64,000 nt of DNA, taken from contig JBDKKJ010000002.1 in the NCBI GenBank assembly GCA_039796155.1, positions 31,365 to 95,364 on the forward strand. Direction: 5' to 3'. The stretch comes from Candidatus Parcubacteria bacterium. Its GTDB lineage: Bacteria; Patescibacteriota; Minisyncoccia; Phycocordibacterales; UBA6065. How positions within the stretch are numbered: position 1 is the stretch's first letter; the number at the start of each line of letters is the position of its first letter. Below are positions 4,734-55,288 of the stretch, piece by piece. The position numbers were made by a program, and so were the translations under genes. The notes below the pieces were generated by a model. That model was not told the origin of the DNA. It did not search any database and worked only from the letters and a program-made list of their open reading frames with translations.

Positions 4734-4737
4734 AACT

Positions 4738-6543: not shown

Positions 6544-6573
6544 AACAAAAGCCACCTCTACACAGGTGGCTTT

Positions 6574-7593
6574 GTGCTCTTGTGGTACAATAATTACATG
6601 TTTCGCGCGTTAAAAAGCACATTATTCTCTCTCTTTATATTTTCTTCTTTCTTTCTCTCTGTACATGCCCAGAGCGTGCCTGGTATCAGTGATCCTGTAA
6701 CATTCCGAATGGTTCCTGAGTATCCAAACCCAAATCAAAGAGTGACACTCACCGCCCAAAGCTTTAATACAGACCTTAATAAGGCAATTTTTAAATGGTT
6801 TGTTAACGATAGGGTGTACAAAGAGGGTGTTGGCATTAAAGAAATAGACATAAACAGTGGTAACGCAGGATCTTTTACAGCAGTACGTGTTCAGATTAAA
6901 ACTCCAGATTTTGGAACTATTGAAAATGCATTCTCGTTTAGACCAGCTGAGGTTACGTTGTTATATGAGGCAGATACGTACACTCCTCCGTTTTATAAAG
7001 TAAAAGCACTCCACTCTTTTAATGGTGCTTTTAAAGTAACGGCCATTCCTGAATTTTTTGATGTGAGTGGCAAAAGAATAAATCCAAAAGATCTTATTTA
7101 TACCTGGAAGAAAAACGGCGAGGTAGTAGGAGCGGCTTCAGGTTTTGGAAAGGATTCGTATATCGCTTCTCAAACAAGCTACCTTCGCGATGGGGAAGAG
7201 GTAAGTGTTGAGGTGTCCTCACCACGTGAAAGCCTTGCAGGTTCAGCTTTTATAACCATAAAGCCGAGTGTGCCGGAAATCATATTCTATGAAAACAGTC
7301 CACTCTATGGGGTTGTATACGAGAAGGCTCTTCAGAGTACTTATAGACTTATAGACGAAGAATTTACTCTTCGCGCAGAACCGTTGAGCATGTCTACAGA
7401 CAATCCACTTTCAGGACTCCTTTCACTTACTTGGGACATGAACGGATCAACCGTCTCAAATTTTAGTAATAAAAATGAGATTACTCTTCGTAAAACAGGT
7501 ACAACTGGTGGGCGATCAAGTGTGAGTCTTGTGGTTCAAAACAAACGAAAGGTACTTCAGGGAGCGGAGGCGAGCATAATGATACTTCAATGA
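6574..7593 (+). CDS. secreted protein with tandem beta-rich repeat domains
   Basis: Cleavable signal peptide (…FFLSVHA/QS); internally repeated ~90-aa segments; within T4SS-like cluster. Confidence 0.45.
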   Translation: MLLWYNNYMFRALKSTLFSLFIFSSFFLSVHAQSVPGISDPVTFRMVPEYPNPNQRVTLTAQSFNTDLNKAIFKWFVNDRVYKEGVGIKEIDINSGNAGSFTAVRVQIKTPDFGTIENAFSFRPAEVTLLYEADTYTPPFYKVKALHSFNGAFKVTAIPEFFDVSGKRINPKDLIYTWKKNGEVVGAASGFGKDSYIASQTSYLRDGEEVSVEVSSPRESLAGSAFITIKPSVPEIIFYENSPLYGVVYEKALQSTYRLIDEEFTLRAEPLSMSTDNPLSGLLSLTWDMNGSTVSNFSNKNEITLRKTGTTGGRSSVSLVVQNKRKVLQGAEASIMILQ

Positions 7594-8753: not shown

Positions 8754-8754
8754 G

Positions 8755-11347: not shown

Positions 11348-11462
11348 AAAATCAGTTATTAACAACTTGTTCACATATTATTAACACATTTAGGCCTTGG
11401 TTTCAAGTACTACTATTCCCATAAGCCATTATACTTACGTTACTTCGGAAAATAATACTTAT

Positions 11463-13037: not shown

Positions 13038-14138
13038 ATGAAAATAGAATGCATTAAAGAGAAACTAATAGAAGGAATTGCAAAGGCAGACCGCCTTACA
13101 GGTAAGAATCTTTCTTTACCTATTCTTTCTTGTATCAATCTTTCTGCAAAAGGTAATTCTTTGATTATACGAGCAACAAACCTTGATTGTGGTATAGAGA
13201 TCAAGATTGCAGCTAAGGTAGACGTAGAAGGCGAAATAGCCCTTCATGGAGGGGTTATGAGTTCACTCCTTGCCGGTCTTCCAAAGGAAAAAAACATTAC
13301 CCTTGAATCAAAGGAGGGAAATGTTGTTATTTCTACATCTGCCAACACAACACTCATTAAAACATTTCCACCGGATGATTTTCCAACTATTCCAAAGCTT
13401 GAAACACAAAGAACAGTTGATATAAGCCCAAAACTTCTTGTTAAAGGTTTTAAATCGGTGTTCTATAGCGCTTCACAATCAACAGTAAAGCCAGAGCTTT
13501 CAAGTGTGTATGTGTTTAAAGAAGACTCAGACCTTGTGTTCGTGTCAACAGACTCATTCAGACTTGCTGAGAAAAGGATAAAAATTAAGGACACTCTCGA
13601 TTTCCCGTCAGTTATAATCCCAGCCAAGAATGTTGCTGATATTATTCGAACTCTTGAAAACACCACTGATGATGTAAAGGTTTTATTTGATAAAAACCAA
13701 ATTGCTTTTGAGGCAAAGGATATTTACCTCATGTCTCGCGTAATTGACGCTACGTTCCCAGACTACAAACAAATCATTCCAAAAACATTCATCACAGAGG
13801 TGGTTGTATTAAAGCAGGATTTTGTTGATTCTCTTAAAACCTCACATGTTTTCTCTGATAAGTTTAATCAGGTTAATGTAAAAGCGCTTCCTTCGAAGAA
13901 ATCATTTACCATTTCTACAAAAAATAGTGATGTTGGTGAATATACCAACGCTATTGATTCAAGTGTGACAGGGCAGGATGTTGAAATAAATTTTAATCAC
14001 AAATACATTGCAGACAGCTTCCAATCTATTGATTCTGATAGTATTTCTATTTCAATCAGTGGAGCAAACAAACCTCTTGTTATGAAAGGTGTATCTGATA
14101 AATCATTCACATACCTTGTGATGCCAATGAATCGTTAA
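13038..14138 (+). CDS. dnaN: DNA polymerase III beta sliding clamp
   Basis: 366 aa, DnaN three-domain pattern; immediately follows dnaA/oriC. Confidence 0.85.
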   Translation: MKIECIKEKLIEGIAKADRLTGKNLSLPILSCINLSAKGNSLIIRATNLDCGIEIKIAAKVDVEGEIALHGGVMSSLLAGLPKEKNITLESKEGNVVISTSANTTLIKTFPPDDFPTIPKLETQRTVDISPKLLVKGFKSVFYSASQSTVKPELSSVYVFKEDSDLVFVSTDSFRLAEKRIKIKDTLDFPSVIIPAKNVADIIRTLENTTDDVKVLFDKNQIAFEAKDIYLMSRVIDATFPDYKQIIPKTFITEVVVLKQDFVDSLKTSHVFSDKFNQVNVKALPSKKSFTISTKNSDVGEYTNAIDSSVTGQDVEINFNHKYIADSFQSIDSDSISISISGANKPLVMKGVSDKSFTYLVMPMNR

Positions 14139-27582: not shown

Positions 27583-27655
27583 CCGCCCATAGCTCAGTCG
27601 GTAGAGCAGCTCCCTTTTAAGGAGAAGGTCGTTGGTTCGATTCCAACTGGGCGGA
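27583..27655 (+). tRNA. tRNA-Lys (anticodon TTT)
   Basis: Manual cloverleaf: acceptor ccgccca/tgggcgg, D-arm tagctcagtcggtagagc, anticodon loop cTTTTaa, T-arm gttggttcgattccaac; CCA not encoded. Confidence 0.85.
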
Positions 27656-27739
27656 CACTCATGCGATAGGTTCGGAGTCCGAGAGGGTCTATGCAACTTT
27701 TTGTAGTTTCTTTATTCGCTAATCTGATATTATTTTTGT

Positions 27740-29179
27740 ATGGACGAAAGCAACAAGGAAAAATTAGCAGTCTTACTCAACACTGAAGAGTGGCAAGTTT
27801 TCGAGTGTAAGGGTGCGGCAATAAAGCCTGCAAAGCTCATGGAGACCGTTATTGCTTTTGCTAATACCAACGGCGGCACAATTGTCATCGGTCTAGAAGA
27901 TCCCAAGAAAGCAACAGGTGAAAAAAGATTATTAGGAATAAGTAAATATGCCGACAATGTATCGAGCTTTTTGGCTCTTCTTGCAAAAGATATAGAGCCA
28001 CCACTTATAGATTTTTCTCACGAAGAATTTGAGATAACAAATGTAGAGGGTAAGGCAGACAAGCTTATTCTCTTTAGGATAGATAAAAGCGATGATGTGC
28101 ATTCGCTAAAGAATGGAGATACCTATGTAAGAAAGGGTAATCAGAATCAGAAAATCGGCGCTTCTGAAATAATTCGGCTAAAGTACGAAAAGGGCTCGAT
28201 CAAGTTCGAATCTGAGATGTCTAATTTGGATCAATTTGATGATGTTGATACTGATTTACTAAAAAAGTTTAAAGATGATACCGACGGTAAAGGTAGTGAT
28301 TGGCAATTCTTTAAAGACAACGGCCTCGCTATAAAGAAGCGCAACAAGTTCTTTTTAACCAAAGGCGGAGGACTGCTCTTCGGAAAGAATCCATCTGTTC
28401 TTCTTGGTAGTAAATCGAGCATAAAAATATCAAGATTCTTTGGTACGAAACAATCATTCACCGGTACGCCGAATTTGGTTCATAAACCACTTACTCTCGA
28501 AGGTCCTCTTTTGCTACAAATAACTGCCGCTGTTGATTATTTCAGGCAAGTGGTTAGGACGTCTCCTCCAAAACTCAGTGGTTCAACATTCAAGCCAAGT
28601 CTGCTTATTCCTGAGTCGGCATTCCAAGAGGCCGTAACCAATGCCGTGATACATAGAAATTATTCTATACAGAATGATATTCAGGTTAGATTTTTTGATG
28701 ACCATATTGAGATCGAAAGCCCGGGAACATATCCTGGACACGTTACTCCTGCGAACATAAGGCGAGAACGATTCGCCCGTAATCCGATAATTCAGAGAAC
28801 TCTAAATCGGTTTGGTGATGCTCCGAACTTGGATATCGGAGAGGGAGTGGACCGTATGTTCAAGGTTATGAAGCAAAAGAACTTGTATGAGCCGCTTTAT
28901 CAGCCAGCAACTCTGTTTCCAAATTCCGTGATGGTGGTCTTGTTTAATCTTCAAAAAATGGAGGCTTGGGATACGGTAAGCAATTATCTCGATAAGAATT
29001 TAAAGATTACTAACGAGCAGTCGAGAAATATCACAGGTATCACTGATACAGTAAAGATGTCACGTCTTTTCAAACAGTGGGTTGAAAATGGTCTTTTAAA
29101 AAAGGCAGAAGGAAGATCCAAAAGGGATATGTATTATTACAAGGCGGGGCAGGAGCTTTCTGCGGTTCTATTTTCATAG
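27740..29179 (+). CDS. AlbA_2 (Schlafen-like) DNA-binding domain / HATPase_c_4-like putative regulator
   Basis: N-terminus …WQVFECKGAAIKPAKLMETVIAFANTNGGTIVIGLED… resembles the 'divergent AAA/AlbA_2' domain; C-terminal half resembles the ATPase-like domain that accompanies it. Confidence 0.45.
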   Translation: MDESNKEKLAVLLNTEEWQVFECKGAAIKPAKLMETVIAFANTNGGTIVIGLEDPKKATGEKRLLGISKYADNVSSFLALLAKDIEPPLIDFSHEEFEITNVEGKADKLILFRIDKSDDVHSLKNGDTYVRKGNQNQKIGASEIIRLKYEKGSIKFESEMSNLDQFDDVDTDLLKKFKDDTDGKGSDWQFFKDNGLAIKKRNKFFLTKGGGLLFGKNPSVLLGSKSSIKISRFFGTKQSFTGTPNLVHKPLTLEGPLLLQITAAVDYFRQVVRTSPPKLSGSTFKPSLLIPESAFQEAVTNAVIHRNYSIQNDIQVRFFDDHIEIESPGTYPGHVTPANIRRERFARNPIIQRTLNRFGDAPNLDIGEGVDRMFKVMKQKNLYEPLYQPATLFPNSVMVVLFNLQKMEAWDTVSNYLDKNLKITNEQSRNITGITDTVKMSRLFKQWVENGLLKKAEGRSKRDMYYYKAGQELSAVLFS

Positions 29180-29229
29180 GCCTTGATAATAAAACCTTAA
29201 TACCTATAAAGGCCTAAAAATAAGGCTAT

Positions 29230-30579
29230 TTAGGAATCTTCATTTTCACAGGCCTTTTCAGCTAATTTGATTTGTTTATTCGCGAGTAGGATTTTACTCC
29301 TCAAACATCCTAACAGTTCTCGTTTTTCCACCATCGTTCCTTCCCGTAAAACATATTTTGCATAATTTCGTATATCGATATCTTCGACTTTGATCACTTT
29401 AGTTTTCACGCCAAGCATCGCTGATTGAAACCTCTTGTTTCGTTCGATTTCCGTTTTGATTTTCTCTTTCATACCTATCTCATTGAGGTCGATTGTATCG
29501 GCCACAGACGTTAGTTGTTCTATAAGAGCCTCTTCCGATATATAGCCACCTTTGCACGCTTTATCATTGTACTTGGTGCAACCGTAGTAGACGTATCGAT
29601 GTATGTTGCCGTTCTTCTGTTTCTTGAACTTCTCGTCGGCCGTGATGCCTGAGCCGCAGAGCCCACAGCTCATGAGCTTGGTGAAGGCGAATTCCTTGCT
29701 CTCTACCCGTATGACATGCTGACTTATAGCTCCCTGTACCTTGTCGAAAAGATCCTTTGATATGAGCGGCTCATGCTTGCCTTGATACCAGTTACCGCTT
29801 CCTCGTGGATATTCGAATGTACCGTAATAGAAATGGTTGCGGAGGATCAGATATACATTGGAGAGGGTGAGGGGTTTGTCATATCGCGATTTGAAATGCA
29901 TGTCGTCTTTGAGCCATGAATAGATTTTACGGCCGCTATACCCCTCATATGCCACCTTATGGAATATCTGCTGGATTATTGCCCCTCTCTTCGGATCAAT
30001 CTTAATCTGGCAACATTCATCCTTGTTCTTTGAATTGATATAGCCTGTGGGCGCTACGCAGGGCCAGAGGCCCATCTCGACTCTGGCTCGGAGGCCTCTC
30101 TTCACATTGATGCGACGGTTATCATTTTCAAGTTTTGCTTGTGAGCCGAGAATCATGAGGAGGAACTTTTCATTCGGGTTATTAGTGAATCTCTGCCCAT
30201 ACGTTCTGATTTCTATGAGCTTACCCGCATCCATGAGATCGACGATTCGACCAAGGTCGCCTGCGTTTCTCGATATACGATCCGGTGCCCATGTGAGTAT
30301 TCCGTTGAACTTTCCCGTTTTTATTTCCTCCACGATCTCATTGAATACCGGCCTCTGCCCAGTTTCCTTGGCTGAATGTGACTCCTTTTTTATCTCCGTT
30401 ATGTCGAGCTTCTCGCTATCAGCAAGGCGAAGCATCTCCTTGATCTGCGAGTCGATGGAAAGTACCTGCTGTTCCTCTGATTCCGTCGATTTCCTCGCGT
30501 ACAGGCAGTATTTCATCTTTATAGGAACTACTATTTTGGCCGGGGTCCCTAAAGGCGCTTGTATCGTATTGTTGTTCAT
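29230..30579 (-). CDS. large serine recombinase (resolvase/integrase family)
   Basis: N-terminal catalytic domain (YARKSTESEEQQ…SIDSQ…WAPDRISRN), recombinase domain, C-terminal Cys-rich zinc ribbon and coiled-coil; 449 aa (true start may be the internal ATG at ~30516). Confidence 0.8.
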   Translation of the reverse strand: MNNNTIQAPLGTPAKIVVPIKMKYCLYARKSTESEEQQVLSIDSQIKEMLRLADSEKLDITEIKKESHSAKETGQRPVFNEIVEEIKTGKFNGILTWAPDRISRNAGDLGRIVDLMDAGKLIEIRTYGQRFTNNPNEKFLLMILGSQAKLENDNRRINVKRGLRARVEMGLWPCVAPTGYINSKNKDECCQIKIDPKRGAIIQQIFHKVAYEGYSGRKIYSWLKDDMHFKSRYDKPLTLSNVYLILRNHFYYGTFEYPRGSGNWYQGKHEPLISKDLFDKVQGAISQHVIRVESKEFAFTKLMSCGLCGSGITADEKFKKQKNGNIHRYVYYGCTKYNDKACKGGYISEEALIEQLTSVADTIDLNEIGMKEKIKTEIERNKRFQSAMLGVKTKVIKVEDIDIRNYAKYVLREGTMVEKRELLGCLRSKILLANKQIKLAEKACENEDS

Positions 30580-30854: not shown

Positions 30855-31511
30855 ATGAATAACATATTCACAATGAGTCAGGGCGCCGGCCAAAAACTTG
30901 AATTCGCGTTCGAACGCAACGACGGAAACACGTCGGACTTGGACTGGCTGTCGACGGGTGAAAACCTCAAGTCGGTCATCCTGCTCGCGCGAGGCGAGGC
31001 GGAATTAACCGTTAAGGCCAAACCTGTCCCAACTCCTGAATCTAAGGTTGCGAGCGACACCATCATCCGTGTCGACCGCTCGGTCAAGCCAACCTATCCC
31101 GACTGGGTGAAGGAAGTCCTTCATCCTGATCTGGAAAAGTCCGGCCCGACCGAATATAGCATCGCCACAATCGACCAATGGCTCCACGAAGGCCAGAAGA
31201 ATGGCAAATGGACCACGGGCAACGTGATCTATGCAAACCTGAAGGACAACGATGAGGTAGCCCTCAAAACCTGTCTCGGACTGCGCGACCTTGAAGAAAT
31301 CCAAAAGAAAGGCATCGCCTTTTTCCGGAAATACTTCAAGGGCAAAGCAGTATTTGGATGGGCTGGTGCTGTGCGGAACCGTCGCGACGACCTGAGTGCC
31401 CCGTATCTCTGCGAGCGCGGTGACGAGGTTGTCCTCGGCTGGAGCTGGGCTGACGGCAGTTGGAGCGGCAACGTTCCAGCTCTCCGCCACGCAAGTAGTC
31501 CTCAAGCCTAA
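30855..31511 (+). CDS. DGR target protein with C-terminal variable region (C-type-lectin-like VR)
   Basis: 218 aa; last ~42 codons (VRNRRDDLSAPYLCERGDEVVLGWSWADGSWSGNVPALRHA) correspond to the VR matched by the downstream TR; markedly GC-rich relative to surroundings. Confidence 0.7.
   Translation: MNNIFTMSQGAGQKLEFAFERNDGNTSDLDWLSTGENLKSVILLARGEAELTVKAKPVPTPESKVASDTIIRVDRSVKPTYPDWVKEVLHPDLEKSGPTEYSIATIDQWLHEGQKNGKWTTGNVIYANLKDNDEVALKTCLGLRDLEEIQKKGIAFFRKYFKGKAVFGWAGAVRNRRDDLSAPYLCERGDEVVLGWSWADGSWSGNVPALRHASSPQA
31370..31494 (+). repeat. DGR variable region (VR)
   Basis: 125-bp near-repeat of 31892-32016; 18 mismatches, every one at a position where the TR has adenine. Confidence 0.8.
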
Positions 31512-31544
31512 GACACTGAGATTTAGCTCTTTGTACTTAGTTCT

Positions 31545-31585
31545 TAGCCCGGCGTCGCGCAAGCGATGTCCGGGCTAATTTTTTA
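31545..31585 (+). terminator. GC-rich hairpin with GCAA tetraloop plus T-run immediately downstream of VR (terminator / DGR-associated hairpin)
   Basis: tagcccggcgtcgc-GCAA-gcgatgtccgggcta followed by ttttttatt. Confidence 0.55.
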
Positions 31586-31891
31586 TTAAAATAATGAACG
31601 AAGTGAATATATTTTCATTATCCCCTTTGGGGATTTTTTATATATCGATATATAATAATTTCGGTAGTAGGCGAATCTGCCGGCGGTTACGGCTTCTGGC
31701 GGCCGAATCCAGTATCCATGCGCTGAGAGCGAAGGAGATTAAGATTTCTTTCGGAGGGCGCATGCAGACACTTCAAAAAATGAAGCTACTTGGTGCAGAA
31801 TGCTATGGCATTATGATGCCGAATACGATTCAACCCTGAGATCGGCGTGGGCCTTCAAGGGGTGGTGGCATGGAAAGCATTGTGCACGTAG

Positions 31892-32016
31892 TGTGCGGAA
31901 CCGTAACGACAACCTGAATGCCCCGTATCTCTACGAGAACGGTGACAAGGTTGTCCTCAACTGGAACTGGACTGACAACAATTGGAACGGCAACAATCCA
32001 GCTCTCCGCCACGCAA
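31892..32016 (+). repeat. DGR template repeat (TR)
   Basis: Adenine-rich (AAC codons) copy of VR; non-coding template; ORF-track entries overlapping it (31800..32114, 31918..32355) are shadow ORFs. Confidence 0.8.
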
Positions 32017-32021
32017 CTCGC

Positions 32022-32384
32022 TCATTTCTCTCTGGCTTTGGCTGGGGAGTTTTGTTTGACAAGTTGCCCACTCCATCCTCCGAGGTTTCGGCCAATCTCA
32101 TCAAGTTTCACTGAGAGCTCAATATACTTCTTGTCGTCGAGAGACTTAACTTCCCAAAGAATCATGAGTAAGACATTAAGTGCGTCGAGCTTGCGTATGG
32201 CCAGACGAACGTATGGATATTTTTCCTGGGACGATAGGAAACTGGCGGCGGCGATAGCCTCGATCGCTTCAATAAACAAAGAATCTATGCGATATCCAAA
32301 TGAGTATCTGTCTTGTTTCGGTATATCATTACAAAATCCATGCCACAACAAATAAGTCTCTTTGATTTTCCGCATGACGGGCAA
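32022..32384 (-). CDS. avd: Avd-like accessory variability determinant (four-helix-bundle family), encoded antisense to TR-RT
   Basis: 120 aa; …DRYSFGYRIDSLFIEAIEAIAAAS… and C-terminal EIGRNLGGWSGQLVKQ resemble Bordetella phage bAvd (…EVGRILGSWIARVNRK) from memory; basic C-terminus. Confidence 0.5.
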   Translation of the reverse strand: MPVMRKIKETYLLWHGFCNDIPKQDRYSFGYRIDSLFIEAIEAIAAASFLSSQEKYPYVRLAIRKLDALNVLLMILWEVKSLDDKKYIELSVKLDEIGRNLGGWSGQLVKQNSPAKAREK

Positions 32385-33417
32385 GATTCCGTTGGGGGGG
32401 GGTTCGCCTCAGGGTTCCGGCCACATCAAATGTATTCATACCTACAAGGATATCATTTCTCTTGAAAATCTACTTGAAGCATGGAAAGAATTTAGAAATG
32501 GCAAGCGCAAAAGGAGAGATGTTTTAGAATTCGAGAGGGACCTCATGCAAAACATCATTTCGCTTCATGATGACTTGGTCGCAAAATCTTATAGACACGC
32601 TCATTACAAAGCATTTAAAATAAACGATCCGAAGCCGAGAGATATCCATAAAGCCACGGTGCGTGACAGGTTGTTACATCATGCAATCTATAGGAAACTC
32701 TATCCATTTTTTGATAAAACATTTATTACCGATTCATATTCATGCAGGATGGGTAAGGGGACGCATAAAGCTCTCGACAGATTTAGAAATTTTGCAGGGA
32801 AAGTATCAAAAAATCATACACGTACAGCTTGGGTTCTCAAATGTGATATACGCAAGTTTTTCGCATCAATAGATCAAAAAATCCTGGTATCGATTCTTGA
32901 AAATTATATATCTGACAAGGATATTATTAATCTTTTTTCGCACATCATCAGTAGTTTCCATTCCACAGTGAAAAACGTTGGCCTTCCTCTTGGAAATCTT
33001 ACATCGCAGCTCCTAGTGAATATATACATGAACAGGTTCGATCGGTTCATGAAACACAAATTAAAAACAAAATATTATATCCGTTACGCTGATGATTTTG
33101 TTATCTTGTCTTGCGACAGGATGTATCTCAAAGGATTGATTTCGCTCATCTCGAATTTTTTGAAAGATAGCTTAAAATTGAGGTTACATCCTGATAAAGT
33201 GTTCATAAAGACGTCTGCTTCCGGTGTTGATTTTCTAGGGTGGGTACATTTTTCCAATCATCGAATATTAAGAACAAGTGCAAGGAAAAGAATGATGAGG
33301 AATATCAGGAAGAACTGTGGAAAATCTGAGTCCGTGCAGTCATATCTTGGACTCATACAACACGGCAATTCCTATAAACTTACAAAGGAAATAAGCAGCT
33401 TGACTGTCTTTTTATAG
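32362..33417 (+). CDS. DGR-type reverse transcriptase
   Basis: RT motifs including YADD (YIRYADDFVILS) and the DGR-diagnostic 'LPLGNLTSQLLVNIYMN' (SQ in place of group-II-intron QGxxxSP); 351 aa; directly downstream of TR. Confidence 0.85.
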   Translation: MIFRMTGKIPLGGGSPQGSGHIKCIHTYKDIISLENLLEAWKEFRNGKRKRRDVLEFERDLMQNIISLHDDLVAKSYRHAHYKAFKINDPKPRDIHKATVRDRLLHHAIYRKLYPFFDKTFITDSYSCRMGKGTHKALDRFRNFAGKVSKNHTRTAWVLKCDIRKFFASIDQKILVSILENYISDKDIINLFSHIISSFHSTVKNVGLPLGNLTSQLLVNIYMNRFDRFMKHKLKTKYYIRYADDFVILSCDRMYLKGLISLISNFLKDSLKLRLHPDKVFIKTSASGVDFLGWVHFSNHRILRTSARKRMMRNIRKNCGKSESVQSYLGLIQHGNSYKLTKEISSLTVFL

Positions 33418-48020: not shown

Positions 48021-49742
48021 ATGGACGTTCAAATAAAAATAAAGTCGGCGATACAAGTAGCGCTCAAGTCGCTTGGTATTACCGCGCCTGAAATAACGCT
48101 CGAACATCCGGCTGATGCGGTAAATGGTGACTTTGCAACAAACGTTGCCCTTGCTCTCGCAAAACAGACCAAATCAAATCCACGTGAACTGGCCGAGAAA
48201 ATCGTAACCACATTACGCGACACACGAATCGAATCAGTGGATAAAATAGAAATGGCGGGTCCGGGCTTTATTAATTTTTATCTTTCAAAAAGATTTTTTA
48301 CTGCCGAGGTAGAAGCGATCCTCAAAAGAGGGGAGCTCTATGGAAACTCAAACGAGTGGCGTGGCCGAAAGATGTTGGTTGAATACACTGACCCAAATCC
48401 TTTTAAGGAATTTCACATTGGACACCTCATGTCGAATGCTATAGGTGAATCAATCGCACGACTTATCAGCTCACAAGGCGCAAAGGTCCGTCGTATGTGC
48501 TATCAAGGTGACTTTGGAATGCATGTAGCAAAAACCATGTGGGCTCTTCTTAAAAACGAGGCAGAAATGCCAGGTAAGCGCGCACCTTTGGCTGAGAGGG
48601 TCGCCTTTCTAGGTAGGTCGTATGTTGAAGGCTCAAAAACCTACGAAGAAGATCCTGTTGCAAAGACAGAAATAGAAGCTCTCAACAAAAAGATTTTTGA
48701 GGCAAAAGATAGAAGGCTTATGAAGCTCTATAAACTTGGACGAAAGTGGAGCCTTCTTAACTTTGAAGAAATCTATAAGAAGCTCGGTACAAAGTTTGAT
48801 TATTACTACCTTGAAAGCGAAGTAGCTCATGACGGTGTTGCCTTAGTAAATGAATTTCTTGAAAAAGGGATATTCGAAAAATCAGAAGGAGCTGTTGTGT
48901 TTAAAGGTGAAAAGTTTGATTCAAAACTTCACACTCGTGTGTTTATAAACTCACAGGGTATCCCAACCTACGAAGCAAAAGAACTTGGACTCAATACCAA
49001 GAAGTGGAAGAAGGTGCGTGCAGATAAATCAATTATTGTTACTGCAAATGAGCAGGCTGATTATTTCCGTGTAGTTTTGAAGGCGCTTGAACTCATTGAA
49101 CCAGAAGCGCGAAAGGCCACAGAGCACGTATCACACGGTATGCTTCGTTTTGCTGATGGAAAAATGTCATCACGAACAGGAAATGTGATTACGGGAGAGT
49201 CACTTATAAAGAGTATTGAGGCTATGGTAATGGAAAAGCTCAATGAACGCGAAATGGATGACAAGCAAAAAGCGAAGACTGCTGAAATTATTGCTGTTGC
49301 TGCAATCAAATACTCAATCCTCAAACAGGTCACTTCATCAGATATTATTTACGACGTCGATAAATCAATTTCATTTGAAGGTGATTCTGGTCCATATCTT
49401 TTGTACACAGCAGTACGTGCGCAATCTATTCTTGAAAAGGCAAAGAAGGAAAAAATAAAACCTGTTGTTACAAATAAAGATGAAGGAACAAGTCCACTTA
49501 CACGACACCTCTCACGATTCGGGGAAGTGGTCACACGATCAGCGTACGAGAAGGCGCCTCATTATGTTGCTACATATTTGATTGAACTCTCTTCTATGTT
49601 TAATGCCTGGTATGCCAACACTCAGATTGTGAACAAAGAAGATGCTGAATCAGCACAAAAGGTGGCTACAACACAGGCGGTTCGAATCGTTCTCGAGAAT
49701 GGATTGAAACTTCTAGGAATGAAAGTGCCGGAGAAAATGTAA
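48021..49742 (+). CDS. argS: arginyl-tRNA synthetase
   Basis: N-terminal add-1 domain, 'FHIGHL' HIGH motif, DALR anticodon-binding C-terminus; 573 aa. Confidence 0.85.
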   Translation: MDVQIKIKSAIQVALKSLGITAPEITLEHPADAVNGDFATNVALALAKQTKSNPRELAEKIVTTLRDTRIESVDKIEMAGPGFINFYLSKRFFTAEVEAILKRGELYGNSNEWRGRKMLVEYTDPNPFKEFHIGHLMSNAIGESIARLISSQGAKVRRMCYQGDFGMHVAKTMWALLKNEAEMPGKRAPLAERVAFLGRSYVEGSKTYEEDPVAKTEIEALNKKIFEAKDRRLMKLYKLGRKWSLLNFEEIYKKLGTKFDYYYLESEVAHDGVALVNEFLEKGIFEKSEGAVVFKGEKFDSKLHTRVFINSQGIPTYEAKELGLNTKKWKKVRADKSIIVTANEQADYFRVVLKALELIEPEARKATEHVSHGMLRFADGKMSSRTGNVITGESLIKSIEAMVMEKLNEREMDDKQKAKTAEIIAVAAIKYSILKQVTSSDIIYDVDKSISFEGDSGPYLLYTAVRAQSILEKAKKEKIKPVVTNKDEGTSPLTRHLSRFGEVVTRSAYEKAPHYVATYLIELSSMFNAWYANTQIVNKEDAESAQKVATTQAVRIVLENGLKLLGMKVPEKM

Positions 49743-49748
49743 AGACAA

Positions 49749-49784
49749 AAAGCCGGGCGGCCTGCGGCCGCCCGGCTTTTGTTT
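49749..49784 (+). terminator. rho-independent terminator
   Basis: Long GC hairpin agccgggcggcctgcggccgcccggct plus T-run. Confidence 0.65.
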
Positions 49785-49821
49785 GACTTTTATGGTGATA
49801 TAGAGAGAATGAGTATGAAAC

Positions 49822-50388
49822 ATGACCTCTCAACAAGCATTGCTTCAACCCGTCTACGGAGAGCTTTTGCTCAACGTGGGCGACCTCATCGAACGCGCCC
49901 TTGCTATAAAGCGAGCGGCCCAAAAAAAGAAATTTCAATCCTTTAATCCATCTACTGACAATTTTCAATTCTTGCTACAACAATCAGGTGTTCGTGATGT
50001 AGGTCGCTATCAGCAACGTTGGACTCCAAAAACTGATTTTGAAAAGCACGGCGGATACAGTGCATATAGTCATTATCAGCTCAAGGGTATGAAAGGGCAC
50101 AAGCCCCTTACAACACTAGGCGTTCTCGGTCAGCTTAATGTTCGCCCGAACATGCATGCAACGACACGGGAACTAATGGGTTTGTTTTTGAATCACCACG
50201 CGGAAATGGTGATGTTCTTGAAACGAAAACATCGTTTGATAGCGTTAGGAAATGACATGTTCCATCAGTATGGAGCAGCGATTCTAATTCTCAAGAGGCG
50301 TAAATTTTTATTACAGGATCTTTCGTGTAGACTCACAGTTGCCTGGTTGCCATCTGATATTTTTGTGACTCGCATTGATCCCTCATAG
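49822..50388 (+). CDS. hypothetical protein
   Basis: 188-aa ORF, no recognised motif; His-rich. Confidence 0.35.
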   Translation: MTSQQALLQPVYGELLLNVGDLIERALAIKRAAQKKKFQSFNPSTDNFQFLLQQSGVRDVGRYQQRWTPKTDFEKHGGYSAYSHYQLKGMKGHKPLTTLGVLGQLNVRPNMHATTRELMGLFLNHHAEMVMFLKRKHRLIALGNDMFHQYGAAILILKRRKFLLQDLSCRLTVAWLPSDIFVTRIDPS

Positions 50389-50450
50389 GAGGGGTCTTTT
50401 TTTTGTAAGTTCCTTTCAAAAATCTCTAAAAATTGCTAATCTAAGCCTCT

Positions 50451-53400
50451 ATGGCAGATATTGATAAACCAAAGCCCGTAACAGCTCCAAAGACCAAACT
50501 CGTCGACATCGAAGAGAAGGTTTTGGCGTTCTGGTCTAAAGAAGATATTTTTTCAAAGTCACTCGAGAAGAAGGGTAAAGAATTTGTATTTTATGATGGA
50601 CCTCCGTTTGCAAACGGTCAGCCTCACTACGGCCACATGCTTACAAGCTTTATTAAAGACACAATCCCTCGCTACAAAACTATGCAGGGTTACCATGTCG
50701 CACGACGATGGGGTTGGGATTGTCACGGTCTTCCTGTAGAAAACCTTATTGAAAAAGAACTCGGTCTCAAATCTAAAAAAGATATTCTAGATTACGGTCT
50801 CGAGAAGTTTAATAAAGCAGCAGGGGACAGTGTGCTTCGTTATGCAGACGATTGGCGAAAACAAATTCCGCGTATCGGTCGTTGGGTTGATATGGAGAAT
50901 GATTACCGAACCATGGATGCAGGTTACACCCAGTCTGTTTGGTGGGTATTCAAAAACCTCTATGACAAAGGCCTCGTGTACGAAGGTTTCAAATCAATGC
51001 AGATTTGCCCTCGTTGCGAAACAACACTTTCAAACTTTGAAGTAAATCAGGGATATAAAGACATCACTGATATTTCGGTGTACGTAAAACTTGAACTGGC
51101 TAAAGAACCAGGTACATATTTTATTGCCTGGACGACGACTCCGTGGACTCTTCCTGGAAACGTAGCTCTTGCTGTGGGTGCAGATATTGATTATGCACGT
51201 GTTACCTCAGAAGGTATGACATACATTGTTGCTCGTGATCGAGTGGCAGATGTTTTTGCTGGAAAGAATCATGACCTTACAACGGTTGTAAAAGGTTCAA
51301 CGCTTGTTGGTACAGAGTACAAACCAATTTTCTCATACTACAACACCAACGCTACAAAGAATGTTGAAAACGGTTTCAAGGTTTACGCTGCGGAATTTGT
51401 TACTACCACCGATGGATCGGGAATAGTGCATATTGCACCTGCGTTTGGTGAAGATGACATGAAGCTCGGACAGAAAGAAAATCTTCCGTTTGTTCAGCAT
51501 GTAGGCATGGATGGTCGTTTCAAATCTGAAGTACGAGACTTTGTGGGACTTGAGGTAAAGCCAAAAGGTGCAGCAACCGGAGATCACCAGAAGACCGACA
51601 TTGAAGTAATAAAATGGTTGGCGCACAACGGTTTTCTTTTTGAAAAGAAGAAAATAATCCACTCATATCCTCATTGCTGGAGATGTGATACACCTCTTCT
51701 TAATTACGCTGCGTCTTCGTGGTTTGTTAAGGTTACAGATTTTAAAGACAAACTCGTTGCTGCAAATAAGAAAGTTTCTTGGACACCGAATGATATTCGA
51801 GATGGGCGCTTTGGTAAGTGGCTTGAAAATGCACGCGACTGGGCAATATCTCGTTCACGATTCTGGGGTGCACCGATTCCTGCGTGGAAGGGGATAAATT
51901 CAGGTACGCTCTATCCTGTAGGAACTCTCGACGAACTTTCAGATCTCATAAAGAAATCAGGTAACTCATATACACTGCTCCGTCACGGAGAAGCAGAGTG
52001 TAATGTGCTTGGTGTTTCAAACTCTGAAGTGCTCGATAAATATCACCTTACAGAAAAAGGACGTAGCGAAGTTGCTGCTCAAGCACAAAAGATTGCGAAA
52101 ATGGGAATCGATGTAATTATCGCTTCTGATTTCATGCGTACTAAAGAAACCGCACGAATCGTTGCTGAAGCCTGCGGTATGGATTCAAACGAAATTGTCT
52201 ACGATGTTCGACTTCGTGAGTACAGTGTTGGCCCCGACAGAGAAGGAAAGCTTTGGCGAGACACCGAATCACATGTCCGCTCACAGGGATTTTTCCCTGG
52301 AATGGAAAGACCAGCTGATTTAAAGAAGCGTGTTTTTGAGGCTCTCTATGACATCGACAAAAAGTATTCAGGTAAACGAATATTGATCATAAGTCATGGT
52401 TCACCGCTCAACAACTTACTCCATGGTATTGATGCAACTGCCGGAGAAGACAAGGTCTTTCATGACGAGCGACGTTATTTCCAGACAACTGCAGAAATGC
52501 ATCCACTCGAGTTTGTCCGACTGCCTCACAATGATAGTTTCGATCTCGATCTTCACCGACCATTTATAGATCGAGTGGAGTGTGTTGGGCCAGATGGGGA
52601 ACAGCTCGTTCGCGTTGCTGAAGTTTTTGACTGCTGGTTCGAGTCAGGTGCTATGCCATACGGTGAGGCGTATTATCACGGCTCACGACAGAGCCATTTT
52701 GATCCAAAGGGAAGTCTCTTTAAAAAGAAGATCGGTTTTCCCGCTGACTTTATAGCAGAAGGTCTTGATCAGACACGTGGGTGGTTCTACTCAATGCTTG
52801 TGCTTGGTGTTGGACTCTTTAATACAAGCCCGTACAAGAACGTTATTGTTAACGGAATTATTTTGGCTGAGAATGGTGAAAAAATGTCGAAGCGTCTTAA
52901 AAACTATCCAGACCCAATGGAAGTTATCGGCAAATATGGTTCAGACTCACTCCGTTACTACTTGTTATCTTCACCGGTTGTTGCCGCTCAAGATCTCTGC
53001 TTTGTAGAGAAGGGTGTTGATGATATTTCAAAGAAACTTCTCCAGCGACTTGATAACGTGCTTTCGTTCTATGAATTGTACGCGGATGAAAATGCGTCTC
53101 AGATACCTGTTACCAACACGTCTTCAAATGTTCTTGATCGATGGATTGTTGCACGTCTCGTCGAGACTCAGGTAGCAATGACCGAAGGACTCGATAAGTA
53201 TCAGATAGATAAAGCTGCACGACCGCTCATGACTTTTGTTGATGATCTTTCAACATGGTACACACGCCGTTCTCGAGATCGATTTAAATCAGATGATGCT
53301 TCAGACAAAGCGGCCGCCCTCGCTACAACACGGTATGTTCTGAGAGAATTCGCTAAAATATCAGCACCTATTCTTCCGTTCTACGCTGAATATTTGTTCG

Positions 53401-53957
53401 GTAGGGTAAAGGCACATGCAGAAAGCCAGAGTGTTCATTTAGAATCTTGGCCAGAGTACAAGAACCATGATGCAGAGGTGATTTCAAACATGTCTGAAGT
53501 TCGACGATTGGTAACACTTGGTCTTGAACAGCGTGCAAAGGCGAATCTTAAAGTACGTCAGCCTCTTGCAGCACTTTCAGTAAAGGTAAAAACCCTTACG
53601 CCTGAATTCTTGGATCTTATTAAAGACGAAGTGAACGTAAAAGAAGTTGTTGTGGATGAAAAAATAGAGAGCGACGTTCTTCTTGATACGAAAGTTTCAG
53701 AATCGCTTCGAAAGGAAGGTGTTGCTCGTGACCTCATCCGTGCAATTCAGGAATTAAGAAAGACAGAGGGTCTCACCGTGGGGGACAAGGTTGTGCTCAT
53801 CCTTGATTCAGATGAAAAGGCAAAAGAACTTGTTCATGCATTCCTTCATGATATTAAAAAGGTGACACTCGTTACTGGTGTTGAATACACGCACCTTCCA
53901 CATGCAAATGAGCTTGTGGTTGAAGAATACAGATTCAAGATTGGATTTAAGAGGTAA
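50451..53957 (+). CDS. ileS: isoleucyl-tRNA synthetase with an inserted histidine-phosphatase (PGAM-like) domain
   Basis: Class I motifs PHYGH and KMSKRLKN, WDCHGLPVE, CP1 editing region, type-2-like anticodon-binding C-terminus; ~200-aa insertion between '…RFWGAPIPAW' and '…FDCWFESGAMP' containing LLRHGEAECN…RTKETA…ISHGSP. Confidence 0.85.
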   Translation: MADIDKPKPVTAPKTKLVDIEEKVLAFWSKEDIFSKSLEKKGKEFVFYDGPPFANGQPHYGHMLTSFIKDTIPRYKTMQGYHVARRWGWDCHGLPVENLIEKELGLKSKKDILDYGLEKFNKAAGDSVLRYADDWRKQIPRIGRWVDMENDYRTMDAGYTQSVWWVFKNLYDKGLVYEGFKSMQICPRCETTLSNFEVNQGYKDITDISVYVKLELAKEPGTYFIAWTTTPWTLPGNVALAVGADIDYARVTSEGMTYIVARDRVADVFAGKNHDLTTVVKGSTLVGTEYKPIFSYYNTNATKNVENGFKVYAAEFVTTTDGSGIVHIAPAFGEDDMKLGQKENLPFVQHVGMDGRFKSEVRDFVGLEVKPKGAATGDHQKTDIEVIKWLAHNGFLFEKKKIIHSYPHCWRCDTPLLNYAASSWFVKVTDFKDKLVAANKKVSWTPNDIRDGRFGKWLENARDWAISRSRFWGAPIPAWKGINSGTLYPVGTLDELSDLIKKSGNSYTLLRHGEAECNVLGVSNSEVLDKYHLTEKGRSEVAAQAQKIAKMGIDVIIASDFMRTKETARIVAEACGMDSNEIVYDVRLREYSVGPDREGKLWRDTESHVRSQGFFPGMERPADLKKRVFEALYDIDKKYSGKRILIISHGSPLNNLLHGIDATAGEDKVFHDERRYFQTTAEMHPLEFVRLPHNDSFDLDLHRPFIDRVECVGPDGEQLVRVAEVFDCWFESGAMPYGEAYYHGSRQSHFDPKGSLFKKKIGFPADFIAEGLDQTRGWFYSMLVLGVGLFNTSPYKNVIVNGIILAENGEKMSKRLKNYPDPMEVIGKYGSDSLRYYLLSSPVVAAQDLCFVEKGVDDISKKLLQRLDNVLSFYELYADENASQIPVTNTSSNVLDRWIVARLVETQVAMTEGLDKYQIDKAARPLMTFVDDLSTWYTRRSRDRFKSDDASDKAAALATTRYVLREFAKISAPILPFYAEYLFGRVKAHAESQSVHLESWPEYKNHDAEVISNMSEVRRLVTLGLEQRAKANLKVRQPLAALSVKVKTLTPEFLDLIKDEVNVKEVVVDEKIESDVLLDTKVSESLRKEGVARDLIRAIQELRKTEGLTVGDKVVLILDSDEKAKELVHAFLHDIKKVTLVTGVEYTHLPHANELVVEEYRFKIGFKR

Positions 53958-54724: not shown

Positions 54725-55288
54725 ATGTCATATGCGGTTTATACAACTCGAGGTTTTATTCTTGGGAGCGCGCCCTCTGGTGAGGCTTCAAAGATCTATC
54801 ATATATATACCGAGGACTTTGGTCTCATTTTTGCTAAAGCACAGAGTGTTCGACTTTTAACCTCAAAACTACGCTTCAATCTTGAAGAGTATTCTTTTGC
54901 AACATTCTCATTGGTACGTGGAAAAGAGATTTGGCGACTAACTGGGGCGACTGAAAAGCTCAATAATGCTCGATTTAATAGGGTGTATGCTCGAGTGCTC
55001 AATTTGATGCGCCGACTTGTTCAGGGAGAAGAAAAAAATCCTGGCTTATTTAGTACGCTAGTTTTTATGATGCAGGGAATGGAGAGCGAAGCACCTGAGG
55101 ATATGATTGCATTCGAGTCTCTTGTTCTCATTCACGTCCTCTCAACTCTTGGGTATATCGATCCAAAAGTTCTTGTTGGTATTGGTCGCGATACAAAACC
55201 ATCACTTTCTGATTTGGAGGCAGTTAAGGCAAAGAAGAGGGAGGTAATAGCTGAAATCAATAAGGCACTTAAAGAAAGCCAGCTCTAA
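54725..55288 (+). CDS. RecO-like DNA repair protein (short form)
   Basis: N-terminal OB-fold pattern AVYTTRGFILGSAPSGEASKIYHIYTEDFGLIFAKAQSVR… resembles RecO; 187 aa, lacks zinc finger. Confidence 0.4.
   Translation: MSYAVYTTRGFILGSAPSGEASKIYHIYTEDFGLIFAKAQSVRLLTSKLRFNLEEYSFATFSLVRGKEIWRLTGATEKLNNARFNRVYARVLNLMRRLVQGEEKNPGLFSTLVFMMQGMESEAPEDMIAFESLVLIHVLSTLGYIDPKVLVGIGRDTKPSLSDLEAVKAKKREVIAEINKALKESQL

Follow-up and report, generated by a model that had tools for sequence, protein, structure and literature searches.

A histidine-phosphatase domain nested in the catalytic core of a patescibacterial isoleucyl-tRNA synthetase

Why would an isoleucyl-tRNA synthetase (IleRS) carry a phosphatase within its catalytic core, and what might such a domain do there? 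The question is raised by ileS::HP, a gene encoding a type-2 IleRS with a nested histidine-phosphatase domain (positions 50451–53957; 1168 aa plus stop) in the 64-kb window analysed here, which is the whole stretch of 64,000 nucleotides; all features below lie on its forward strand. In related bacteria the same phosphatase is a separate, ileS-coupled gene. The window gene is a single 1168-aa open reading frame without interruption, and its product is identical to NCBI MEN9621661.1.

The synthetase itself appears whole. Despite the insert, the protein scores above the NCBIfam equivalog cutoff for ileS (TIGR00392; 859.6 bits versus 621.4), and the Pfam tRNA-synt_1 match, split by the insert, covers aa 24–502 and then resumes. 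The class I catalytic site carries the HIGH signature as HYGH (aa 59–62; 50625–50636), with H59 and G61 invariant in alignment A1. The CP1 editing domain follows (aa ~203–402; 51057–51656; 340 bits with our own CP1 HMM), its motifs WTTTPWT (aa 227–233) and GSGIVHIAP (aa 322–330) intact and D336 invariant, and leads into the CP core/CP2 return and CP2–CP3 linker (aa 403–481; 51657–51893), terminating in SRSRFWGAPIPAW. Beyond the insert come the second half of the Rossmann fold (FDCWFESG, DQTRGWF and the KMSKR loop) with the stem-contact fold (52617–53036), and then the anticodon-binding helical domain and type-2 C-terminal domains (53037–53954), matched by Anticodon_1 (aa 896–1040) and DUF5915 (aa 1076–1165) in Pfam. 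In the KMSKR loop (aa 811–815; 52881–52895), K811 and K814 are invariant and S813 is at least 90% conserved; both HIGH and KMSKS motifs are conserved across 64 aligned sequences.

Fold comparison agrees. The closest Foldseek matches are IleRS2 8C8V and yeast IleRS 8WND (TM 0.70–0.73 on the query), and solved IleRS structures match at E 1e-73 to 1e-55 with TM up to 0.86 on the target. The protein shares its fold and domain order (Rossmann fold, CP core, CP1 editing, CP2, CP3, stem-contact fold, anticodon-binding domain, type-2 C-terminal domains) with 8C8V from Priestia megaterium, yeast 8WND and Thermus thermophilus 1ILE. Unlike the window protein, with its ~185 nested residues, none of the solved IleRS structures has a domain inside CP3. 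At the level of motifs, profiles and folds, ileS::HP encodes a complete type-2 IleRS, and its orthology and conserved synteny with the ileS of relatives suggest that the product charges tRNA-Ile with isoleucine. No second ileS was found within the 64-kb window. The mupirocin-resistance synthetases MupA and MupB (NF000257 and NF000258) were considered and rejected, as the scores (674 and 711 bits; cutoff 1900) reflect generic type-2 similarity only.

The insert is a histidine-phosphatase (His_Phos_1) domain of aa 506–690 (51966–52520), with its first strand at 506–511 and its last at 683–686. Pfam places PF00300 at aa 508–660 (E 1.6e-24; 87.1 bits versus a cutoff of 21.7), a match that stops at profile position 158 of 194, and the domain has the alpha/beta fold of superfamily branch 1. 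The initial annotation had recognized a full catalytic signature here, and every part of it is present: LLRHGEAECN (aa 509–518), RTKETA (aa 563–568) and ISHGSP (aa 647–652). The RHG motif, comprising R511, the nucleophile H512 and G513 (51981–51989), is 100/100/99% conserved in 121 sequences and aligns to the RHG of PhoE. R563, the second phosphate-binding arginine (52137–52139), E590 of the motif LRE, the predicted proton donor (52218–52220), and H649, the second catalytic histidine (52395–52397), are invariant in the same set, as are R511, H512, N518, E619 and R627, in a domain whose column identity averages only 58%. Proteins with several copies retain the R, H, R, E, H catalytic set in each full-length copy; copy 1 of protein P0241 is alignable only from R563 onward, and its RHG region was left unscored. 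The least conserved part is the cap (aa 591–618; 0.36 versus ~0.6). With a median pI of ~6, the domain is slightly acidic and therefore no general RNA binder.

By these features the insert is a complete histidine phosphatase of the PhoE/PspA type that lacks none of the catalytic residues. PhoE, a broad-specificity phosphatase of Bacillus stearothermophilus (1EBB/1H2E), and PspA of Hydrogenobacter (4IJ5) have the same aligned catalytic residues and, as members of branch 1, are of the same size class, with a cap and without the C-terminal tail of dPGM. The nested domain differs from them in its modest identity (24–28%), in reaching no equivalog cutoff, in its variable cap, and in being always synthetase-nested, never free-standing, in the window lineage. 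Named functions were rejected in turn: cofactor-dependent phosphoglycerate mutase (dPGM; NF038349, TIGR01258 and GpmB NF002901), whose equivalog models take in the mutase-specific substrate residues and the C-terminal tail (dPGM_arch 70 bits against 225, GpmB 60.7 against 261 and PRK01295 24.6 against 316, all below cutoff); CobC alpha-ribazole phosphatase (TIGR03162; 49.2 against 162.9); PspA phosphoserine phosphatase (NF045917; 29.3 against 350); and SixA phosphohistidine phosphatase (TIGR00249), whose equivalog cutoff the domain does not reach and whose minimal cap-less fold it does not have. From the invariant catalytic residues and the purifying selection described below, we infer phosphomonoesterase activity through a phospho-histidine intermediate.

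Where exactly does the domain sit? The initial annotation had located it between RFWGAPIP and FDCWFESGAMP; both motifs are present and flank the insert (aa 470–477 and 726–736), and the site itself can be drawn more narrowly. The domain is inserted into the loop of CP3 (a subdomain defined in PMC7191050), within the stretch that forms a zinc knuckle in relatives. The N-terminal piece of CP3, a hairpin and helix ending in VGTLDELSDLIKKSGNSY (aa 482–505; 51894–51965), precedes the domain, and the C-terminal piece, a conserved connector running from RLPHNDSFDLDLHRPFID to LVRV (aa 691–722; 52521–52616), follows it. The connector residues N505, F688, P692, H693, D700 and R703 are at least 90% conserved and H702 and P704 invariant; DLHRPxID is common to the window protein and to IleRS without an insert. 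In Minisyncoccus archaeiphilus IleRS, the CP3 loop is 11 residues long, versus the ~185-aa phosphatase here. The zinc knuckle was described for T. thermophilus IleRS (PMC7191050) and is retained in relatives; its cysteines are absent from the window protein. Many phosphatase-bearing members of the family retain them, and because these have both cysteines and domain, the domain is no zinc-knuckle replacement. The insert comes directly after the CP2–CP3 linker, which in yeast IleRS contributes to the pocket for the tRNA CCA end and reveromycin (PMC7955072). Given this, the linker lengths around the insert, which are constant across the family, and the conserved connectors, the phosphatase is predicted to be mounted in a fixed geometry beside the catalytic cleft.

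An architecture this odd, in a metagenome-type genome, could a priori reflect an assembly chimera, a frameshifted fusion, or a functionless intein or mobile insertion. However, a homologue search for the same insertion found the nested phosphatase in all 120 of the closest homologues (53–89% identity), which come from independent NCBI, JGI, ENA and Logan assemblies on contigs of up to 657 kb, and because the architecture recurs in every one of them, chance is excluded. The CP3-nested phosphatase also occurs, in-frame, in ~57 species genomes of Patescibacteria (CPR). The assembly error that the initial annotation had allowed for finds no frameshift to rest on, and GC content runs at 0.41–0.46 throughout the insert and flanks without a break. 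With the reading frame intact and tRNA-synt_1 split around His_Phos_1, this is a nested insertion and not a terminal fusion, as had been proposed. Nor is it an intein, again as first thought: no Hint, intein or homing-endonuclease family matches at E up to 0.01, and the phosphatase fold accounts for the whole insert. Between the window protein and its closest relative, a comparison in which synonymous sites are saturated, the phosphatase has a dN of 0.105, which lies between the values of the IleRS N-terminal core (0.074) and C-terminal part (0.124). In dN the phosphatase is thus comparable to the essential IleRS body, and selection on it is purifying. An artefact or selfish element is, on this evidence, vanishingly improbable.

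Across much of the Patescibacteria the nested architecture is the rule, and it varies in copy number and position. Among the best 150 cluster representatives matching the insert, 134 are IleRS. Tandem phosphatase pairs are found in Peregrinibacteria and Peribacteria. One protein has four copies, and a copy at a second site, ~60–80 residues past KMSKS and after the KMSKS/stem-contact region, is found in Gracilibacteria and in two 1419-aa proteins. Some phosphatase-bearing patescibacterial IleRS (P0216 and L063) have a GNAT domain at a third site. An additional enzymatic domain on IleRS has a precedent in NF040702 ('isoleucine--tRNA ligase, N-acetyltransferase domain-containing'), which is of a different lineage and has a different added domain. 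The window protein does not belong to that family (319 bits against 1999, with no acetyltransferase Pfam match), and P0216 scores 218 against the same cutoff.

A sister lineage, which includes the cultured M. archaeiphilus, supplies an independent comparison. Its IleRS lacks the insert, and at 11 of 11 loci a related stand-alone phosphatase gene (~195 aa) lies directly upstream of ileS, between argS and ileS. At four of these loci the two genes overlap stop to start, by ATGA in three and by 8 nt in one. In the stand-alone proteins the position of the proton donor E590 is Asp. The embedded and stand-alone families score 112–147 bits against one another, versus 77–95 bits for PhoE and PspA. Gene order is common to both lineages: in the window, argS (arginyl-tRNA synthetase; 48021–49742) lies upstream of ileS::HP and recO (54725–55288) downstream, in an argS-(HP)-ileS-recO-DUF11 synteny whose HP slot is vacant where the phosphatase is nested. 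Because fusion, operon linkage and repeated insertion coincide, the phosphatase and IleRS appear to form a dedicated partnership. The pairing in Patescibacteria is old and under selection, and the two very probably work together. The initial suggestion of a phosphatase coupled to aminoacylation gains strong and independent support from the translationally coupled gene upstream of the insert-less ileS.

Comparable arrangements exist elsewhere. Hydrolytic editing modules of synthetases include CP1 of IleRS, ValRS and LeuRS, the INS domain of ProRS versus free YbaK/ProX, and the AlaRS editing domain versus AlaX. The phosphatase resembles them in being either nested in a connective peptide or free-standing and encoded nearby, in both forms presumably working on something bound by the synthetase, but its fold is unrelated, and they hydrolyse aminoacyl esters, whereas phosphomonoester hydrolysis through phospho-histidine is predicted here. 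Phosphatases of the same branch are also joined to RNA, DNA or nucleotide enzymes, as in the bifunctional RNase H/acid phosphatase of the Rv2228c type (NF005567) and in Nudix-HP MutT1 (3FJY, 9CXX), although those are end-to-end fusions with other partners, whereas the phosphatase here is nested. NF005567 is among the best NCBIfam matches (52 bits for the embedded and 65 for the stand-alone domain), far below its cutoff of 326.

What, then, does the domain do? It is likely to be an active phosphomonoesterase whose job is tied to IleRS and not to unrelated metabolism. By analogy with the editing modules, we tentatively suggest that it could be a proximity-targeted third hydrolytic site of IleRS, acting on a blocking 2'/3'-phosphate at the acceptor end of tRNA-Ile. 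IleRS would capture tRNA-Ile via the anticodon, and the flexible acceptor end would sample the phosphatase pocket on CP3, beside the CP2–CP3 linker that lines the CCA pocket. H512 would attack the phosphate that prevents aminoacylation, be it a 2'/3'-phosphate at the terminus or the outer one of a pyrophosphate, with R511, R563 and H649 binding the phosphate and E590 protonating the leaving group; the phospho-histidine would then be hydrolysed, leaving a repaired, chargeable CCA-OH end. Tethering to IleRS, and not the phosphatase pocket, would confer specificity, in keeping with the poorly conserved cap. To our knowledge, no member of the histidine-phosphatase family acts as an RNA 3'-end phosphatase. 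The substrate class exists, because toxSAS toxins add pyrophosphate to the 3'-CCA ends of tRNAs, selectively for particular tRNAs, and block aminoacylation (PMC11559606; bioRxiv 10.1101/2021.04.30.441581). No toxSAS or HipA-like kinase toxin gene was found within the 64-kb window. These two points speak against acceptor-end repair, as does the mild acidity of the domain, and the idea gives no reason why IleRS alone among synthetases carries it.

Exact geometry is probably not always essential, because copy number varies, two insertion sites are used and a free-standing form exists. These features fit a diffusible substrate equally, and so bring in a small-molecule phosphatase co-localised with IleRS, its linkage serving only to co-express the two or to clear product locally in a reduced genome. 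It could act on something that the synthetase reaction yields, as main or side product (AMP, an NDP-type terminal phosphate, possibly PPi), or on an unrelated metabolite, for example a sugar phosphate or phosphoserine. The tolerance of one to four copies suggests weak geometric constraint, the complete two-helix cap is typical of such enzymes, and fusions of histidine phosphatases to Nudix nucleotide hydrolases (3FJY, 9CXX) are among the fold matches. Yet the domain falls below every characterised equivalog cutoff (dPGM_arch, GpmB, CobC and PspA, as above), and the pocket-forming cap is its least conserved part, an uncommon property in a specific metabolic enzyme. Three independent linkages to ileS and conserved, fixed connectors would be unexpected for an unrelated one, and the association with IleRS only is left without an account, so that we consider this explanation somewhat unlikely. 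A non-catalytic role, whether as a sensor that binds a phospho-metabolite and adjusts IleRS to the state of glycolysis, or as a stand-in, structural or tRNA-binding, for the lost CP3 zinc knuckle, would suit the loss of the cysteines in the window protein, where the domain may stabilise CP3, and the rigid mount implied by the connectors; histidine-phosphatase domains of uncertain catalysis also occur in tau55 of the tRNA-gene transcription factor TFIIIC (2YN0 and 6YJ6, both fold matches). But all chemistry residues are invariant across large divergence and kept in full-length extra copies, including E590 although binding alone needs no proton donor, and the free-standing form can have no structural role in CP3. 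Such a role is improbable.

The phosphatase might instead act on IleRS itself, clearing an inhibitory phosphate, for example on the KMSKS serine, and so resisting or resetting shutdown by a kinase. KMSKS-loop lysine acetylation regulates other synthetases, and GNAT domains co-occur in some phosphatase-bearing IleRS. There is precedent for phosphorylation: HipA modifies S239 of KLSKR in GltX and HipT S197 of KMSKS in TrpS, by a route of reversal that the source describes as unknown (PMC6581861). The KMSKR loop with its conserved S813, the second insertion site close behind it and the presence of protein phosphatases (SixA, PGAM5, Sts) in the superfamily are all consistent with self-directed action. 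However, no IleRS-targeting kinase is known and none was found in the 64-kb window, up to four active-type tandem copies are hard to reconcile with a one-site reaction in cis, and a mark always reversed by a tethered phosphatase would be useless unless the phosphatase were itself regulated. We regard self-directed action as unlikely.

Acceptor-end repair and self-directed action share a broader idea, possible though doubtful, that the phosphatase, built-in or operon-encoded, reverses a phosphorylation block on isoleucine charging, be it a toxSAS-like phosphate or pyrophosphate on the CCA end or a HipA-like phosphate on the KMSKS loop. If so, IleRS would be without precedent among synthetases in having a third hydrolytic site, for 'repair/immunity', and its phosphatase would be the first eraser dedicated to undoing phosphorylation attacks on aminoacylation. 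Cultured M. archaeiphilus carries the two-gene version.

Finally, the architecture had first been thought unusual and perhaps unreported. The distribution above speaks against rarity; the second part stands, as a full-text literature search found no paper describing a phosphatase-bearing IleRS. The architecture is therefore widespread in databases yet undescribed in the literature found. Public databases list its proteins, their Pfam domain already computed, under names that include 'class I tRNA ligase family protein', 'isoleucyl-tRNA synthetase' and 'hypothetical protein'.

The gene at 50451-53957 (+) is a single unbroken reading frame of 1168 codons, in which GC stays at 0.41-0.46 throughout, with no compositional break. 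Its product (NCBI MEN9621661.1, deposited as a 'hypothetical protein' of Candidatus Parcubacteria bacterium) is unambiguously assigned by NCBIfam to the isoleucyl-tRNA synthetases (IleRS), scoring 859.6 bits against TIGR00392 (ileS; cutoff 621.4). Pfam finds the class I synthetase catalytic domain in two pieces, an anticodon-binding domain and DUF5915, the C-terminal region of type-2 IleRS, together with a histidine phosphatase domain (His_Phos_1, PF00300) at residues 508-660 (E 1.6e-24; 87 bits, gathering score 21.7). The HIGH (HYGH, residues 59-62) and KMSKR (811-815) motifs are present and the editing-site motifs are all intact. The initial annotation had read this gene as an IleRS with an embedded histidine phosphatase; every motif it quoted occurs in the frame, the unbroken ORF and the PF00300 and TIGR00392 matches bear the reading out, and the nested phosphatase is confirmed as an observation, with the accompanying interpretation supported and extended.

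PF00300 is also found in all 120 of the best homologues (53-89% identity, 1123-1235 aa), which were drawn from NCBI, JGI, ENA and Logan assemblies, on contigs of up to 657 kb, and come from Candidatus Paceibacterota, Parcubacteria, Taylorbacteria or Patescibacteria; UniRef A0A2M8LD99 is a Taylorbacteria homologue. Searched alone against 1.84 billion cluster representatives, the insert gave 453 matches at E <= 1e-10; IleRS sequence flanks it on one or both sides in 134 of the best 150, and no other synthetase carries the phosphatase domain among those 150. When one genome for each GTDB species was scanned with an alignment that included the flanks (A2), the domain was placed at the same IleRS position in about 57 genomes, and insert-less IleRS and upstream stand-alone phosphatase genes were recovered as well. 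Recurrence of the architecture in independent homologues and species genomes, together with the even GC and the Pfam content, rules out an assembly chimera, a frameshift or an intein and leaves any artefact of this sort a negligible probability; the in-frame domain insertion originally proposed fits the single ORF, the split Pfam match and the same layout in relatives. A candidate secondary loss of the domain, at locus L058 of the scan, was rejected, as a masked run of N lies there and the domain is present.

Saccharimonadales-type IleRS has neither the insert nor a neighbouring phosphatase gene. Many TPA metagenome assemblies titled 'uncultured Candidatus Saccharibacteria bacterium' have phosphatase-bearing IleRS (loci L001-L060); these records group with Paceibacteria in the IleRS tree, and those labelled Saccharimonadales are without the domain. 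The 'Saccharibacteria' labels of the TPA series, like the 'Spirochaetia' label of an 8-kb contig (L004), look unreliable.

The phosphatase is nested in the CP3 subdomain, which follows the CP2-CP3 linker and in T. thermophilus IleRS bears a zinc motif (PMC7191050). Across CP3, the insert-less IleRS of Minisyncoccus archaeiphilus reads ...WGAPIPIWECSECKK..IGSIAELEEKRIAGEKVSDLHRPFIDDVKLVCPDCGK...VFDCWFESG, and the phosphatase stands in place of the short loop that joins the CP3 helix to DLHRPxID. Both CP3 cysteine pairs are kept around the domain in several family members and are lost in the window protein. Junction lengths are constant, and conservation is at least 90% at N505, F688, P692, H693 and D700, which together point to a rigid mount of the phosphatase; in yeast IleRS, the linker just ahead of CP3 helps to form the pocket for the tRNA CCA end (PMC7955072). 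An AlphaFold2 model of the full-length protein has a mean pLDDT of 84.6 (above 90 in the insert) and a pTM of 0.73, and the isolated phosphatase domain is predicted to fold on its own (pLDDT 92.3). The best solved structural neighbours of the full-length model, IleRS2 of P. megaterium, yeast IleRS and T. thermophilus IleRS, have nothing inserted in CP3, whereas the window IleRS carries the phosphatase there. Both partners are ordinary in themselves: the host is a type-2 IleRS, the guest a branch-1 histidine phosphatase like PhoE and PspA.

From its sequence, the domain looks catalytically competent. Across 121 aligned sequences, N518, E590, E619 and R627 are invariant, as are R511, H512, R563 and H649, so that the catalytic signature claimed earlier is intact; G513 is 99% conserved, column identity over the whole domain averages 58%, and the invariant residues line up with the PhoE and PspA catalytic residues. 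Nonsynonymous divergence (dN) from the closest relative, L001, comes to 0.105 for the domain, compared with 0.074 for the N-terminal core and 0.124 for the C-terminal part; regions were compared by dN only, since synonymous sites are saturated even at this distance (pS 0.79-0.87) and dN/dS is unusable. The insert is thus as strongly constrained as the surrounding essential enzyme. Its least conserved part (0.36 versus about 0.6) is the cap, residues 591-618, which in relatives gives the substrate pocket its shape. The NCBIfam equivalog cutoffs of dPGM, GpmB, CobC, SixA and PspA are not reached; identities as phosphoglycerate mutase, SixA, CobC or PspA were rejected, the curated cutoffs being missed by wide margins, and by these profiles the domain is assignable to the histidine phosphatase superfamily only.

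The same partnership exists in trans. Five species genomes, including the complete genome of the cultured M. archaeiphilus PMX.108, encode an insert-less IleRS of 940-990 aa, and in all five the gene for a related histidine phosphatase of ~195 aa lies directly upstream of ileS. Its stop codon overlaps the ileS start in four of them (ATGA in three, 8 nt in the fourth), as is typical of translationally coupled genes. Clustered at 90%, this stand-alone family numbers at least 224 members, each ~185-220 aa long; six further members (42-52% identity to the M. archaeiphilus protein) all sit directly upstream of an insert-less ileS, with argS upstream in each and recO downstream in four, giving the order argS - phosphatase - ileS - recO. 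The synteny in the window is the same: argS (48021..49742, +), ileS with its nested domain, gmk on the opposite strand, recO (54725..55288, +) and a DUF11 protein. In many nested-domain genomes argS abuts ileS, and the slot of the separate phosphatase gene is therefore empty. In profile scores, the embedded and stand-alone families match each other at 112-147 bits, as against 77-95 bits with PhoE or PspA, suggesting that they are closer to each other than to either. The only separated case, in a Nealsonbacteria MAG (PWHM01000020.1; L078:6141-6792), has ~650 nt between the stand-alone phosphatase gene and ileS, a spacer of repeated palindromic units of types GATTCCCGATCGGGGTCGGGAATGAC and TTCCCGCGAAAGCGGGAATC that look like REP-type elements.

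The argS-ileS spacer of the window (49743-50450) is unusually long, at ~700 nt. A strong terminator follows argS (49748-49780; 15-bp stem, 11 G-C pairs), and a hairpin with T8 at 50377-50396, ~55 nt ahead of the ileS start, could be an attenuator; an Rfam search at gathering thresholds of the region upstream of ileS returned no regulatory RNA, only sub-threshold noise. The spacer also contains an ORF of 188 aa (49822-50388), in the place of the stand-alone gene of the sister lineage, with no Pfam match and no conservation in relatives. We rejected this ORF as a relic of a stand-alone phosphatase, as neither phosphatase HMM matches it in any frame and it is unconserved.

Copy number and position vary further. 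Two tandem phosphatase domains occupy CP3 in Peregrinibacteria and Peribacteria, one protein has four, and a second site, between the KMSKS/stem-contact region and the anticodon-binding domain, is filled in a Gracilibacteria IleRS of 1805 aa and two 1419-aa proteins. The R, H, R, E, H set is kept in every full-length copy; copy 1 of one representative (P0241) aligns only from R563 on, its RHG region lying outside the scoring. At a third site, after DCWFESGSMP, a GNAT acetyltransferase domain is found in two architectures. The 1805-aa IleRS ORF (L063:2050-7464, MAG JALWQU010000225.1) has GNAT at residues 812-912, ~250 further residues without assignment between DCWFESG and DQTRGWF, a phosphatase after KMSKS, an expanded editing region and a weak MuF_C-like match (308-365). 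An IleRS fragment (P0216) carries both a CP3 phosphatase and a GNAT domain; inside its editing-domain region, residues 326-472 match a REP-associated tyrosine transposase (NF047646, 81 bits, cutoff 80; Pfam Y1_Tnp), a stretch that could be a genuine nested insertion or a chimeric assembly. In the Peregrinibacteria and Peribacteria tandem pairs (L052, L054, P0242 and P0259) the second copy is far more divergent than the first, and in a neighbour-joining tree it falls near PspA, apart from other IleRS-associated domains, which hints that it was acquired separately or diverged fast once duplicated. Neighbour-joining trees, which carry no support values, suggest that the phosphatase-IleRS association is old in Patescibacteria; they nest the stand-alone clade among embedded domains, which makes gene fission as likely as fusion, and we claim neither direction.

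These data show that an intact phosphatase module has been selected to stay with IleRS. Its occurrence in at least four arrangements (in CP3, in tandem, at the second site and as a coupled upstream gene) is a classic signature of functional partnership, and we infer that the domain is probably an active phosphomonoesterase with a role tied to IleRS. To our knowledge, the textbook aminoacylation cycle has no phosphorylated intermediate; a phosphatase partnership kept in this way would imply that isoleucine charging here involves a phosphoester that needs removal. We tentatively propose that the phosphatase acts as a proximity-targeted third hydrolytic site of IleRS, and that it may free the acceptor end of tRNA-Ile bound to IleRS from a 2'/3'-phosphate or pyrophosphate that blocks it. 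This idea is favoured by the fixed mount beside the CCA pocket, by the variable cap, suggestive of specificity through tethering, by the parallel with editing modules, which are likewise both nested and free-standing, and by the existence of toxins that tRNA-specifically (pyro)phosphorylate CCA ends (PMC11559606; bioRxiv 10.1101/2021.04.30.441581).

Against action on the tRNA end stand the mildly acidic character of the domain, the variation in copy number and insertion site, and the absence of a toxin gene nearby in the 64-kb window. The nearest folds, moreover, are small-molecule enzymes; a small-molecule or product-removal phosphatase is nevertheless somewhat unlikely in our judgement, and has to be set beside the constant, conserved junctions. 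Dephosphorylation in cis of IleRS itself, for example at the KMSKS serine, which is the target of the HipA/HipT kinases in GltX and TrpS (PMC6581861), we regard as improbable. A non-catalytic sensor or structural role would suit a rigidly mounted domain, but with the catalytic residues kept in every full-length copy it seems very unlikely.

Precedents exist for parts of this arrangement: ileS_w_GNAT (NCBIfam), which the window protein does not match, for an extra enzymatic domain in IleRS; RNase H and Nudix enzymes for fused histidine phosphatase domains; and synthetase editing domains, in cis and in trans, for nested or free-standing hydrolytic modules. What is new is the combination of IleRS and phosphatase and its recurrence in cis and in trans. 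The architecture had been called unusual and perhaps unreported: it is in fact common in Patescibacteria, and we found no paper describing it, although literature coverage is incomplete and 'unreported' here means 'not found'. The main text of a 2026 preprint annotating 96,219 IleRS architectures mentions neither a phosphatase nor Patescibacteria.

Aminoacyl-tRNA synthetases are among the best-studied enzymes, and new biology has come repeatedly from their accessory domains for editing, tRNA binding and signalling. Synthetase specialists would be surprised by a phosphatase conserved as a partner of IleRS, apparently catalytically intact and retained over a very large radiation of ultra-small, host-dependent bacteria. 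Should its substrate be a blocked tRNA end or the phosphorylated synthetase, the partnership would represent a new level of quality control in translation or of toxin resistance; a metabolite as substrate would make it a new case of translation-metabolism coupling in reduced genomes. The two-gene version in a cultured organism makes the question directly testable. There are also consequences for annotation: the 120 homologues go under the names 'class I tRNA ligase family protein', 'hypothetical protein' or 'isoleucyl-tRNA synthetase', and the domain could be mis-scored as phosphoglycerate mutase in CPR metabolic reconstructions.

The window has other features of interest. It covers the chromosomal origin region, as indicated by yidC, dnaA (11397-12809) and dnaN (13038-14138), just before which lies a type IV secretion-like cluster (566-9987) with a TrbL/VirB6-like protein of 792 aa, a PrgI-family protein, a VirB4/TraC/TraG-type ATPase and several unannotated ORFs. 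Beside tRNA-Lys(ttt) is a possible integrated island (27583-30579), with genes for a Schlafen/AlbA_2 + HATPase_c_4 protein (27740-29179) and, on the minus strand, for a large serine recombinase (29230-30579). A diversity-generating retroelement (30855-33417) follows immediately downstream of this island. Its variable repeat (31359-31494) lies at the 3' end of an ORF of 218 aa that has no annotation (30855-31511), and next come the template repeat (31881-32016) and an RVT_1 reverse transcriptase (32362-33417); the 136-nt repeats are 83% identical, with mismatches nearly all at adenines of the template copy.
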